Assembly: GCA_048941265.1 (NCBI GenBank)
Contig: JBHLNT010000009.1
Coordinates: forward strand, 1-62,997
Direction of reading: 5' to 3'
Length of the DNA: 62,997 nucleotides
Source: Promethearchaeota archaeon
Lineage (GTDB): Archaea > Asgardarchaeota > Lokiarchaeia > Sigyniarchaeales > SOKP01
Below are positions 5,948-62,997 of the stretch, piece by piece (the first letter of the stretch is position 1; each line of letters starts with the position of its first letter). The notes under the pieces were generated by a model. The model was not told the origin of the DNA, ran no database searches, and saw only the letters and a program-made list of their open reading frames with translations. A program made the translations under genes and the position numbers.

Positions 5948-6862
5948 CTATGATTTTAATCCTAACAGTTCTTTGGCTTCATCTACGGTAGCGGGCTCTC
6001 TTCCAAGTTCTTTAGCCAGTCTCACCATCCGAGCTACAAGTTGAGCATTACTTTGAACGAGCTCGCCTTTTCTATAGTGAAGTGTGTCTTCTAATCCAGT
6101 TCTAATATTACCGCCCATACACATGGCAATAGTGGTAAGAGTAAGATTATATCTGCCCACAGTAACGACTTGCCACATAGAACCTTCGGGAAACTGATCA
6201 ACTAGATGGGTCAAATTACTTACTGTTGCGGGGGCTCCTCCATTGATTCCTAAAACCAGGCTAAAATGTAGGGGAGGCTTTAATGAGCTTACATCTACAA
6301 GATCAAAAATATTATTAATATGACCTGAGTCATATACTTCAATTTCAATCCCACAACCTCGCTTATAACATCTATTAACAAATTTTCTATTGAAATCCAT
6401 AGGATTGTCGAATAAATGACTTCCATAACGTGTTCGGAATTCAAATGTTCCGGCGTTTATTGTATACATATCTGGTACTGGTTTGATATTGAGAAGATTT
6501 AATCTCTCTTCCAAAGTTGCCATTCGGATTGATGTGCCATATTTTTTACCTTTACTACTCACTTTTGTACCCCACTCAACCCAAGCCCCTATACCATTTC
6601 CTATTTGTGTTATAATAGGAGATTTTTCCTTAATTAGAGTAACGGCTTTATTATAAACCTTTAAATCAGGAGTATTTTGGCCATCCTCTCCACGAACATG
6701 AAGGTGACAAATCGCGGCTCCCGCATTATAACATTCCAAGGCATCTTGAGCTTGTTCTTCTGGAGTAATTGGTACTGCAGGATTCGCCCACTTTCCTTGG
6801 ATACCACCAGTGATAGCAGCAGTAATAATTATTTTCTCATCTAAGAGAAGATTTGGTTTCAA
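5948..6862 (-). CDS. Beta-keto acid cleavage enzyme (BKACE/DUF849, 3-keto-5-aminohexanoate cleavage family), uninterrupted copy
   Basis: IIITAAITG, NPAVPITPEE, CHLHVR (Zn-binding HxH), IEVYD, RTGLED, GREPAT; TTG start. Confidence 0.93.
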   Translation of the reverse strand: MKPNLLLDEKIIITAAITGGIQGKWANPAVPITPEEQAQDALECYNAGAAICHLHVRGEDGQNTPDLKVYNKAVTLIKEKSPIITQIGNGIGAWVEWGTKVSSKGKKYGTSIRMATLEERLNLLNIKPVPDMYTINAGTFEFRTRYGSHLFDNPMDFNRKFVNRCYKRGCGIEIEVYDSGHINNIFDLVDVSSLKPPLHFSLVLGINGGAPATVSNLTHLVDQFPEGSMWQVVTVGRYNLTLTTIAMCMGGNIRTGLEDTLHYRKGELVQSNAQLVARMVRLAKELGREPATVDEAKELLGLKS

Positions 6863-59774: not shown

Positions 59775-61043
59775 ATGGAAAACAAGATTATACCTTACAC
59801 AATGTTATCAGAAGCCCTAAATACAACTCAAGAATTAATTGAAAGAATACTGCCTGAATATGGGATGCCTTCTTTAAGGATTGGTTTAGAAAAAATAAAT
59901 TCCGTTTTAGATGATTATCTTAAAAAGGCACAAGAAGGACTTCCTGTAGTAGGATATCATTTTGCATTTCCCGGCGAATATCTTAATTGCTTTGATTGTG
60001 TCCCCGTGTGTTTAGAAGCGTCAGGTTATTTTTTAGCAACTTTACTGCTACACGGAGTGGAAAAGTATTATGATCTTATCGCAAATTTTGGACATCCCTT
60101 TCATACGTGCTCAGCACAAAAGGCATCAATGGCTTTTACGTTGGATGATTTATTCAGATTTGATGCAATCATTACTCCAACAGCACCATGCGATAGTACA
60201 TGTGCATCATATCCTTTTTTTCGTTATGAAGGAAAATTTCCATTAATTATTGCCGATTTACCTTTTCGTTTCGATGAAAAAGGATATCAATATTATGGTA
60301 ATCAATTAAAGATTAATCTAACCAAATTAGGCAATGAAATTGGACAAGAGCCAGATTATGAGAAACTAAAAAAAGCATTAGAACTTGAAAATCAGACAAA
60401 TAATTTACAATTAGAAATATTCGAATTAGCTAAAACAATTCCTAGCCCAATAGAGAATATATATAATGCTGTTTCTGCTGCAACCACTATAATAATACCA
60501 GGGACAATTGAGAAATATGAGTTCTATAAAGAAATGTTAGAACTAGCTAAATTTAGATATAGAAAAAAAGTCCATCATGGTGGGGAAGAACGTATTAGAT
60601 CGATATGGCCTTATATGTTAACCTTTTTTGATATTTCTCTCTGTGAATATTTGGACAGAGAACTAGGAATGAGCATTCTTTTTGATATTTTTAATTATAA
60701 CTTTTCAGAACCAATTAATACCAGCTCAGATTTGGATACTATGTTCTATGACATGGCAAAAAAGGGGATGGGCTGGCCCATGGTTAAACAATCTATAGAG
60801 TTTTATTATCCCTTTATAGATGATTGTGTGAGATTTGCAAAAGAGTTCAGCGCAGACTGTTTTATTTTCACTCAAAGTTTAGCCTGTAAGCAATTTGGAA
60901 CTGTCCCCCAGCTTCTAAAAGAAGCTTTAAAAGAAATAGGTATTCCGATGTTGATAATTGAATTCGATGTAGGGGATGCCAGAATGACCTCATTAGCAAC
61001 CATTAAAGAAAAAATTAAACTGTTTGCTCAGACATTATTATAA
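59775..61043 (+). CDS. 2-hydroxyacyl-CoA dehydratase / benzoyl-CoA reductase family subunit (HgdA/BzdO-like)
   Basis: HTCSAQK, PCDST, ACKQ, GIPMLIIEFDVGDAR. Confidence 0.85.
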   Translation: MENKIIPYTMLSEALNTTQELIERILPEYGMPSLRIGLEKINSVLDDYLKKAQEGLPVVGYHFAFPGEYLNCFDCVPVCLEASGYFLATLLLHGVEKYYDLIANFGHPFHTCSAQKASMAFTLDDLFRFDAIITPTAPCDSTCASYPFFRYEGKFPLIIADLPFRFDEKGYQYYGNQLKINLTKLGNEIGQEPDYEKLKKALELENQTNNLQLEIFELAKTIPSPIENIYNAVSAATTIIIPGTIEKYEFYKEMLELAKFRYRKKVHHGGEERIRSIWPYMLTFFDISLCEYLDRELGMSILFDIFNYNFSEPINTSSDLDTMFYDMAKKGMGWPMVKQSIEFYYPFIDDCVRFAKEFSADCFIFTQSLACKQFGTVPQLLKEALKEIGIPMLIIEFDVGDARMTSLATIKEKIKLFAQTLL

Positions 61044-61171: not shown

Positions 61172-62132
61172 TTATTTTAAATCTAGTATTTCTTTCGCTT
61201 CATCAATATTGGCAGGATCTCTACCAAGTTCACGGGCAATTCTTACCATCCGTTTTACTAATTGAGCATTACTTTTTACTAATTCACTTTTTTGATAATA
61301 AATTGTGTCTTCAAGACCTGTTCTGATATTACCGCCCATGCACATTGCTATTACTGTGGTTCTAAGATGAAATTTGCTAATAGTTACTACTTGCCAAGTG
61401 GAGCCTTCGGGGAGTTGTTCAACCATATGAATTAAATTACTCACTGTGGCAGGTGTTCCCCCTTGAATACCAAGTACGAGACTAAAATGAAGTTTTTCAT
61501 CTTGTTCAAATACACCCATCTCAATTAAATCCATAATATTCGCGATATGACTTACATCATATACTTCAATTTCTATGCCAGCCCCCAGGTTTTTACATTT
61601 TTTAATATACTTTTCATTAAATTCGATAGGGTTATCAAAAATAAATGCTGTTTTCATACCTCTAGTAACCGTTCTAAATTCAAAAGTACCGGCATTTATG
61701 GTAAACATATCTGGTTGAGGATTCATATTCAATAAATTAAGTCTTTGATCTAATGTAGCGAATGTAAAAGCTTGACCATATCTTTTACCTGTTTTGCTTA
61801 CTTTGACTCCTTGTTCAAGTCGGACCCCGATTCCATTACCTATTTGAGTAATTATAGGGCATTTTTCTTTAATTAATTTCACAGTTTTGTTATAATATTT
61901 TAGATCTGGTGTTGCCCATCCATCTTCGCCTCTTACATGGATATGACATACAGTTGCACCTGCTTCATAGCACTCCAAAGCATCTTGAGCTTGTTCTTCT
62001 GGAGTTATAGGTAAATTGGGATTTGCCCATTTTGGTAAAATTCAAAGAAATCTAAACTTTTTTCCCATGGGCTCCCCCAGTAATTGCAGCTGTTATAATC
62101 ACACTATTATCTGAAAGTAAATTGGGTTTCAA
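61172..62132 (-). CDS. BKACE/DUF849 beta-keto acid cleavage enzyme, split by a 31-nt insertion: join(complement 62062-62132, 61172-62030), 309 aa
   Basis: GAGG SD and TTG at 62132 give MKPNLLSDNSVIITAAITGGAHGK; after removing 62031-62061 it continues WANPNLPITPEEQAQDALECYEAG into the 61172-61978 ORF, collinear with paralogue 5948-6862. CHIHVR and GLED are intact. Confidence 0.85.
62031..62061 (-). other. Candidate bulge-helix-bulge (BHB) mRNA intron, 31 nt
   Basis: mRNA GCCCA-UGGG-AA^A-AAAGUUUAGA-UUUC-UUUGAAUUUU-ACCA-AA^A-UGGGC: 5-bp exon helix, 4-nt central helix (3 Watson-Crick pairs plus a G-A), two AAA bulges on opposite strands, 10-bp intron stem. Cleavage after the second bulge nucleotide removes exactly 31 nt and restores the frame. 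Confidence 0.7.
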
Positions 62133-62301
62133 TTTGCATTAACCTCTTTATTCTATAATTTAATTTCGTTAATTAAAATTAGATATTATTTAGACAAATA
62201 AAAATTATTGTAAATTATCTCTTTTTATTATGATAGACAAATTTCATTAATGGGACTTTTATAGGCATTAAAGTGTTTAAAAGATTTGCCCACTTTCATA
62301 T

Positions 62302-62997
62302 TTAGACTGGTTCAAATACATCTAATTCTTCAAGAAACTTGAGTATTTTTAGGTATTTTTCATCCTTTTTTCTAAGAATTTCCTCTTCACTACGCCCACT
62401 ATAATCAAATATGCCTTTAGATGTTTTTACACCATAGTGTCCTTGATCAACTTTATCTTTAATTATCGAAAGCTCTAAACCCATATTTTTAAGAACGTCA
62501 GATATAACATCAAGTCCAACAAAATCTAAATTCTGGACCACACCTACAACAGGCAACCTTAAGCTGAAACTTGTCTTCACTGCTAAATCAATTTCCTCGG
62601 GTGTCGCAATTCCTTTTAATAAAAGTCCGAACACAGCAGAATTAAGTGCTTGCTGGATTTTATTTACTATAAATGCATTTGTGAATTTTTTTAAGATGAT
62701 TGGTGTTTTGCCGAGTTTCTTTAGCATATTATACGATAAATCAATTATTTCCGGAGATGTTTTTCTTCCTGCCACTATTTCAACTAAAGGAATTATATGA
62801 GCTGGTCTAAACCAATGCTGAATTACTAATCTTTCGGGATTATTAATATCGACTAATTTGAAAATATTTAATTCCGACGTATTACTAGCAAATATAGTCT
62901 TTTTTGAGCAAAGTTCATCTAATTGAGAGTATACTCCTCTTTTTATATCTTTATTTTCGCTCACAGCTTCAACAACATAATCTGCCCTTTTAGCTGC
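62302..62997 (-). CDS. 3-hydroxyacyl-CoA dehydrogenase family (HWF type), 5' end outside the window
   Basis: Frame is open to the window edge (AAKRADYVVEAVSE...), ASNTS, QHWFRPAHIIPLVEIV, GVKTSKG; paralogue of 33828-34769. Confidence 0.9.
   Translation of the reverse strand, partial: AAKRADYVVEAVSENKDIKRGVYSQLDELCSKKTIFASNTSELNIFKLVDINNPERLVIQHWFRPAHIIPLVEIVAGRKTSPEIIDLSYNMLKKLGKTPIILKKFTNAFIVNKIQQALNSAVFGLLLKGIATPEEIDLAVKTSFSLRLPVVGVVQNLDFVGLDVISDVLKNMGLELSIIKDKVDQGHYGVKTSKGIFDYSGRSEEEILRKKDEKYLKILKFLEELDVFEPV

Follow-up and report, generated by a model that had tools for sequence, protein, structure and literature searches.

The stretch of DNA analysed here (the window) comprises positions 1 to 62,997 of contig JBHLNT010000009.1, from assembly GCA_048941265.1 of a Promethearchaeota archaeon. 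On its minus strand it carries a BKACE gene that starts with TTG at 62132, stops at 61172 and is interrupted by 31 nucleotides (nt) at 62061-62031. The frame that opens at the TTG reads (M)KPNLLSDNSVIITAAITGGAHGK, which amounts to 24 codons ending in ...ITGGAHGK when unspliced, and then runs through KV into a TAG codon at 62054-62052. A second frame is open from 62029 for 285 codons (WANPNLPITPEEQ...) down to the stop at 61172 (P0001). In the upstream direction this frame is closed inside the insert by a TGA at 62044-62042, downstream of the TAG, and the same four-codon upstream limit is found in two orthologues (L070 and L071). Because the UAG closes the exon-1 frame before the exon-2 frame, bounded by the UGA, begins, no single frameshift can join the two frames, and this explanation was ruled out for this position, which we call site A. 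A first-pass annotation of the window had called the gene start, the 31-nt insert and the stop codons of both frames, and reading of the sequence confirmed each of them. It had also assigned the DNA to a probable Asgard archaeon, in agreement with the closest genomes, which are Promethearchaeota/Promethearchaeia metagenome-assembled genomes (MAGs).

Exon 2 alone matches the Pfam BKACE profile (PF05853) over positions 18-274 of 274 (E = 3.7e-78), and alignment to a second BKACE gene in the window, at 6862-5948(-), shows that the first strand it lacks is encoded by exon 1. As the first reading of the window had noted, this paralogue has no insert and reads ...ITGGIQGKWANP... through the interruption point. 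On the two sides of the junction, paralogue and interrupted gene share 17/24 (exon 1) and 30/36 residues. The two paralogues, 5948-6862(-) and 61172-62132(-), are 68% identical and lie within one 63-kb window.

For the transcript of 62090-62010(-), RNAfold gives a structure of -22.6 kcal/mol that is essentially the bulge-helix-bulge (BHB) fold proposed earlier, including an intron stem of 10 base pairs (bp) with three G-U pairs. On each strand an AAA bulge sits 3' of the central helix, and the two 3-nt bulges flank a helix of 4 bp (Table 1). The archaeal splicing endonuclease cuts after the second nucleotide of each bulge, consistent with introns at tRNA position 37/38. Applied to the fold, this rule removes exactly 62061-62031 and yields GGG AAA UGG (G-K-W); the predicted spliced sequence across the junction is ...CATGGGAAATGGGC... 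and the junction peptide ...AHGK/WANPNLPITPEEQAQ.... Excision would leave a 7-nt loop (4+2+1 nucleotides) with the junction at the equivalent of position 37/38. We counted as a BHB any structure with at least 3/4 pairs in the central helix (H), at least 4/5 pairs in the exon helix (h) and the first 3 pairs of the intron helix (h'). At a given position and length, such a structure occurs at 6230 of 9,987,648 genome positions (6.2e-4). Thus, an exact, frame-restoring BHB is improbable by chance at one insert, and very improbable at three independent inserts such as those described below. An Rfam scan of 61800-62300 returned no match at E <= 1. We also considered and rejected a repeat or mobile element, as a blastn-short search of the 31 nt against the 5.0-Mb genome found only chance AT-rich partial matches of <= 20 nt.

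Table 1. Positions of the features of the interrupted BKACE gene, its predicted BHB structure and its paralogue in the window.
Feature	Position	Strand	Remarks
Shine-Dalgarno-like GAGGT	62142..62146	(-)	5' of the TTG start; read in sequence
Exon 1	62062..62132	(-)	TTG start, 23 codons and first 2 nt of the Lys codon
Exon helix h, 5' strand GCCCA	62068..62072	(-)	pairs with 62029-62025; 94% of cells paired, 7 sequences
Central 4-bp helix H, 5' strand UGGG	62064..62067	(-)	pairs with 62036-62033; three pairs and one G.A
Bulge 1, AAA	62061..62063	(-)	predicted 5' cut between 62062 and 62061
Putative 31-nt intron	62031..62061	(-)	borders from the BHB cleavage rule; an A run makes 4 registers equivalent
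Intron helix h', 10 bp	62037..62060	(-)	three G-U pairs; 4-nt loop 62050-62047; 100% of cells paired
Central helix H, 3' strand ACCA	62033..62036	(-)	alignment pairing
Bulge 2, AAA	62030..62032	(-)	predicted 3' cut between 62031 and 62030
Exon helix h, 3' strand UGGGC	62025..62029	(-)	RNAfold and alignment pairing
Exon 2	61172..62030	(-)	last nt of the Lys codon, 285 codons, stop
Uninterrupted paralogue P0002	5948..6862	(-)	junction reference; Pfam BKACE positions 1-274

We hypothesize that the 31 nt are, in all likelihood, a BHB mini-intron in the BKACE pre-mRNA that is spliced by the splicing endonuclease EndA and the ligase RtcB. In our model, the transcript flanks GCCCA/UGGGC and the insert would fold as a helix, a 3-nt bulge, a 4-bp helix, a 3-nt bulge and a further helix. 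The endonuclease, probably an alpha-beta heteromer, would cut after the second nucleotide of each bulge, and RtcB would ligate the exons, the 31-mer probably being circularised. The mature mRNA, ...GGG AAA UGG..., would then encode the full-length enzyme. Removal by these two enzymes to give G-K-W had already been proposed in the first-pass annotation, and the comparative evidence now supports it, strongly though indirectly.

The genome encodes the machinery that this model calls upon. There are two EndA paralogues of 201 and 198 aa, encoded on C258 and C323, alpha/beta-like and each with N- and C-terminal endonuclease domains (PF02778, PF01974), as well as an RtcB (PF01139, 569 bits). By eye, what we take to be the Tyr/His/Lys motif of EndA is kept in one paralogue and not in the other. 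A published survey (PMC5829648) describes, for Asgard archaea, a broad-specificity (alpha-beta)2 EndA with an L1 loop that broadens specificity. In this genome (5.0 Mb, 91% complete), Aragorn found 10 tRNA genes without intron search and 12 with it, 9 of the 12 being interrupted; they lie on contigs C4, C70, C107, C113, C138, C154, C331, C343 and others. Most tRNA genes are probably interrupted at positions that Aragorn cannot model. The counts fit the heavy tRNA interruption that a preprint describes for some Asgard archaea.

A close homologue of the gene is present in 80 of 135 genomes of the same family. Considering both interruption sites of this gene family (the second is described below), 119 loci had a usable core. 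Of these, 105 run through without an insert, 12 (8 distinct sequences) are interrupted, and a contig end truncates the remaining 2. The site A insert has seven distinct carriers: the window's own genome (G000), the genomes G003, G001 and G133, and the metagenome contigs L134, L135 and L136 from other projects. Orthologues that do not have the insert, in G005, G009 and G002 (86-87% identical) and in G109 (93%), read CATGGGAAATGGGCAAATCC, which is the predicted spliced junction. In a nucleotide tree of exon 2 (12 rows, G002 left out), the carriers and G109 form a clade (support 97/93). Nested within it, G109, which has no insert, is sister to G133, which has one (100/99). The simplest history at site A would therefore appear to be a single gain followed by a single precise loss. 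G133 (L033/L068) and G109 (L034/L069) are both placed in genus g2, whose BKACE copies are mostly 64-77% identical to that of g1, the genus of the window. In these two genomes the gene is 93% identical to it, which may reflect lateral transfer or a binning error.

The second site (B) lies seven codons upstream of site A. Here a gene of another paralogue group, in genome G022, has an unrelated 31-nt insert, and its junction, ...GCGAUAA/CCGGCGG, is also where a 29-nt insert sits in metagenome contig L150. The paralogue group of the G022 gene is 79-82% identical to uninterrupted relatives. The G022 insert forms a textbook hBHBh' structure, with an exon helix CCGUUG/CGGCGG of 6 bp, a central helix CGAU/AUCG paired 4/4, bulges AAA and UAC, and an intron helix of 3+6 bp. 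In L150 the exon helix is again 6 bp, the central helix CGAU/GUCG is paired 4/4 and the bulges are AAA and AAC; its intron helix consists of 1 bp, a mismatch and then 6 bp, and the inner stem is unrelated to that of G022. The rule-based cut in G022 gives GCG AUA ACC GGC (A-I-T-G), and excision at site B restores A-I-T-G-G as in 100+ homologues. Overall, in-silico removal of 31 nt at site A, 31 nt in G022 and 29 nt in L150 restores the frame and the residues of the homologues. In G022 a single frameshift is formally possible, but it would add about 10 residues.

The two site B inserts need not share one origin. The G022 gene groups with an uninterrupted gene, L147 (99/91), and an approximately unbiased (AU) test rejected a clade of G022 and L150 (p = 0.0003), a group that was defined by the trait after a quick tree had been seen. 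As the host genes are thus rejected as sisters, the homology of the site B inserts is uncertain, and three histories fit. The site may have been struck twice, an old intron may have disappeared many times over, or a 5' segment may have passed from one gene to another. At the junction, the site B carriers (L010 1440-1482 in G022; L150 165-213) use G/C-ending codons (ACC, GCG, ACC, GGC), and their relatives mostly A/T-ending ones. This codon usage is compatible with selection on the exon helix or with a common origin of the 5' segment.

The exon hairpin can fold in uninterrupted homologues too: 59 of 69 have at least 4/5 pairs at site A, and 26 of 73 at least 5/6 pairs at site B. At both sites the coding sequence itself forms a stem and a 7-nt loop, the stem after excision being 5-6 bp. 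Since the coding sequence offers this hairpin, an insert need supply only the 3' half of the central helix and the inner stem. The preference for these sites may reflect either targeted insertion or the survival of inserts that happen to be spliceable. More speculatively, coding hairpins with a 7-nt loop in Promethearchaeia, as mimics of anticodon arms, might be proto-splice sites that BHB mini-introns have repeatedly colonised and left. We hold this idea only tentatively and consider its being wrong the better bet; it draws on the gain and precise loss at site A, and on unrelated inserts at an identical junction in non-sister genes at site B. If true, endonuclease-type introns would still be mobile in mRNAs of the archaea most closely related to eukaryotes, with reverse splicing and reverse transcription as one conceivable route, and the expression of some metabolic genes could be gated by tRNA-splicing capacity.

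The main rival to splicing that fits site A is translational bypassing (hopping), in which peptidyl-tRNA-Lys would leave the AAA at 62063-62061, skip 31 nt and land on the AAA at 62032-62030. As in the bypass of phage T4 gene 60, which combines a short untranslated gap within a gene, matched codons, a stop and a stem-loop, the take-off and landing codons are matched (exactly 31 nt apart), and the gap holds a stable stem-loop and a UAG three codons past take-off. For G022, an AAU...AAU pair might play this part, at the price of two extra residues. Unlike in gene 60, however, the stop of site A does not directly follow the take-off codon, and the codons at the homologue-like junction of site B are unmatched (AUA vs CGU in G022). 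Hopping would also leave unexplained the pairing of the exon flanks and the 3-nt bulges spaced by exactly 4 bp at all three inserts, that is, the BHB geometry as well as the site B inserts. To our knowledge, hopping has not been described in archaea. Consequently, we regard it as an unlikely account of this gene.

A dead gene would be another explanation: this BKACE copy would have been inactivated by the 31-nt insertion, leaving its function to the intact paralogue at 5948-6862. The broken frame with stops in both frames and the intact paralogue in the same window agree with this, and the case is known from DNA sequence alone. In contrast, the insert is common to seven distinct sequences, and pairwise comparison of the carriers G000, G003 and G001 gives a dS of 0.33-0.43 and a dN/dS of 0.086-0.10 for exon 2, vs 0.05-0.08 in the insert-free orthologues; the relaxation of exon 2 expected of a pseudogene in the first-pass annotation is not seen. 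None of the seven carriers has a stop or indel in the 285 codons of exon 2, where 124 of 285 third positions vary, vs 49 of 570 first and second positions. In exon 1, dN/dS is 0.11-0.31 (2-5 synonymous vs 2 non-synonymous differences). In six carriers 11 of 24 third positions of exon 1 vary, vs 3 of 48 first and second positions, so that exon 1, too, evolves in the manner of a coding sequence. Carriers retain the start codon and the GAGGT motif, with AGAGGTT present in all six that have the upstream flank, which supports a translation start at exon 1. In addition, the second and third inserts of the family follow the same cutting geometry. By these comparisons, the gene, including exon 1 in its own frame, has been under purifying selection since the insert arose. 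As such selection on both exons would exclude a dead gene, the pseudogene reading is strongly disfavoured.

Conservation of the insert itself exceeds that of third codon positions, which also speaks against a pseudogene: 4 of its 31 columns vary, vs the 124 of 285 third positions of exon 2 (Fisher p = 8e-4). Three of the variable columns are in the 4-nt loop; in the remaining one a G-U pair becomes G-C, and the same pair is A-U in a contig variant at 62057. No change is seen in the final 18 nt of exon 1, from which the exon and central helices are built, although 11 of the 18 preceding third positions vary. These patterns suggest that the insert is constrained as RNA.

Alternatively, the locus could make two products, a 26-residue exon-1 peptide and an N-terminally truncated enzyme from the TTG at 61978, with the insert as an intercistronic stem-loop. 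The TTG at 61978 is the first start codon in exon 2 and opens a 268-aa open reading frame (ORF). However, the truncated form would be without Pfam BKACE positions 1 to about 35, including the ITGG...GKW...PEEQ block that is conserved in the carriers, and the BHB geometry and the precise loss would be unexplained; no ribosome-binding motif was seen before 61978, but none was looked for. We therefore give two products very little credence. An assembly or sequencing artefact, conceivable in a window from a MAG of 361 contigs, is refuted for practical purposes, as the insert recurs in three other species-level genomes, in three metagenome contigs of other projects and in DNA contigs from three sequencing runs (X1 record 8, X2 record 14 and X3 record 23, one of which may be the source sample) that span 62061-62031; the insert is genuine in DNA.

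We then asked how rare such interruptions are in the window's own genome, G000. BHB motifs were scanned on both strands and combined with ORF merging, for introns of 14-150 nt and exons of at least 20 codons. The scan gave 8536 candidates at the correct cut offset vs 8144 (+1) and 8307 (+2) in the controls, and perfect motifs showed no excess (107 vs 102 and 115). With paralogue bridging and introns of <= 70 nt, lax criteria left 72 candidates vs 59 and 72 in the controls. Strict criteria left 4 vs 1 and 2, among which the BKACE case alone is convincing. In a search independent of structure, 9328 ORFs were compared all-against-all for genes that lack an N-terminus present in a paralogue, and the 455 candidates gave 22 upstream pieces. 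The BKACE gene was the only clean short insert, and the other weak candidates of this search had no convincing frame-restoring BHB. Judged by their paralogues, four genes are split into adjacent frames with (almost) no extra sequence (strand-oriented coordinates C12:3161-3768(+), C140:4338-4880(+), C286:2359-2829(+) and C301:84536-84949(+)), and they look like plain frameshifts, that is, sequencing errors, pseudogenes or programmed shifts. On the 9.3-kb contig C179, identical 160-nt contexts surround 433-452 and 6332-6351, a repeat within the contig. The gene for cbf5 (TruB_N at C70:27739-28080(+)) lies in a single open frame of 347 codons, and the classical crenarchaeal intron host is thus uninterrupted in G000.

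Several observations weigh against splicing of the BKACE transcript. Neither the motif-based nor the paralogue-based search of G000, in which only genes with a paralogue are visible, gave a second convincing case. This indicates that the host does not use such introns widely; as the searches see only genes with an in-genome paralogue, absence elsewhere is not established. The site A fold is only modestly better than shuffled sequences (z = -1.80; 7 of 200 shuffles equally stable). Its central helix is of a relaxed form, with three standard, invariant pairs and one pair, G.A, that is never standard, and the exon helix has a C.A mismatch in two carriers. The exact BHB registers of the three inserts are 1.5-3.6 kcal/mol above the minimum free energy (MFE) register. 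At site A the difference is 1.7 kcal/mol for a 48-nt core. At L150 it is 3.6 kcal/mol, and the MFE structure has a 6-bp central helix that would lead to a wrong excision of 27 nt. Strict covariation at site A is nil (0 pairs changed on both sides), so that support for the structure rests on conservation and on the location of the changes. Among the same-position inserts of the orthologues, the pair changes come down to one G-U/G-C/A-U series, and all other variation is in the loop. An AAA codon precedes both the insert and UGG, which is formally compatible with ribosome hopping. Finally, the anatomy, the enzyme genes, the in-silico frame restoration, the conservation and the gain/loss pattern are established, and from such comparison of DNA we infer cleavage and ligation.

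The interrupted gene is flanked upstream, on the same strand, by a gene for 3-hydroxyacyl-CoA dehydrogenase (62302-62997(-)) and, on the other strand, by one for the D-component of 2-hydroxyglutaryl-CoA dehydratase (59775-61043(+)). This neighbourhood suggests an amino-acid or acyl-CoA fermentation cluster.

The first-pass annotation had wondered about an undescribed class of mRNA introns. This is not the case, as BHB introns are known in the coding sequence of cbf5 and in the 5' untranslated region (UTR) of HVO_1309. If spliced as proposed, BKACE would join cbf5, so far the one archaeal protein-coding sequence in which an endonuclease-type intron has been reported, and would add a new host gene and lineage, namely a metabolic gene in the Asgard archaea, the lineage nearest to eukaryotes. 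The 2020 Haloferax paper (PMC7714728) names cbf5 as the only other reported mRNA BHB intron, and according to a 2023 review more archaeal mRNA BHB introns probably remain to be found. Our literature search, with supplementary files outside its scope, found no paper on BHB introns in Asgard protein-coding genes. In an October 2026 preprint on Asgard tRNA introns, mRNA and cbf5 are absent from the main text, and its supplements could list cases. With the carriers, the precise loss and the second site at hand, short synthetic RNAs and recombinant EndA can be used to test how such introns are gained and lost and what rules govern their substrates. For gene calling, such genes will appear as pseudogenes or split ORFs in Asgard MAGs. 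Going by the two genome-wide searches, the phenomenon is rare in this genome and not a general mode of gene organisation.

Several known systems resemble the BKACE case in part. HAC1/XBP1 mRNAs undergo non-spliceosomal removal of a short intron that shifts the frame; the cuts fall in the loops of a hairpin pair, and the ends are sealed by a tRNA ligase, which in animals is RtcB. The resemblance, non-spliceosomal and frame-changing removal of a short intron, is one of analogy and not of homology. The endonuclease there is Ire1 and not the tRNA splicing endonuclease, and HAC1/XBP1 splicing is regulated by stress.

Closer to our case is the cbf5 pre-mRNA intron of Crenarchaeota, reportedly the subject of Watanabe 2002 and Yoshinari 2006. 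Like the BKACE insert as interpreted here, it is, according to Yokobori 2009 (PMC2738675), a short BHB-type intron inside a coding sequence whose removal is needed for the protein. In the same paper, the splicing endonuclease of its hosts is hetero-oligomeric, a relaxed cleavage motif is common, and lineage-specific gain and secondary precise loss are deduced from phylogeny. In contrast, the BKACE host gene is metabolic whereas cbf5 encodes an RNA-modification enzyme, and the lineages differ (Promethearchaeota, that is Asgard, vs Crenarchaeota). Moreover, the BKACE family has two intron sites within 7 codons, one of them occupied in two non-sister genes, and its splicing is predicted from sequence. 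Haloferax volcanii HVO_1309, as described in PMC7714728, is likewise a short mRNA substrate of an archaeal splicing endonuclease (46 nt there), and excision of its intron is linked to expression. It differs from BKACE in that the intron is in the 5' UTR, the frame is uninterrupted and the host endonuclease is of a different type. The HVO_1309 intron was also demonstrated by circRNA-seq and in vitro cleavage, according to that paper, while the BKACE case is computational. Schwarz et al. suggest that a tRNA intron circle of 31 nt may have escaped detection because it is so short. Finally, the canonical hBHBh' introns of archaeal pre-tRNAs at position 37/38 have identical geometry, with a 5-6-bp stem and a 7-nt loop after excision, and presumably the same enzymes act on both kinds of substrate. 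Unlike these pre-tRNAs, the BKACE mRNA presents a hairpin of codons with no tRNA body, and at site A one pair of the central helix is non-standard.

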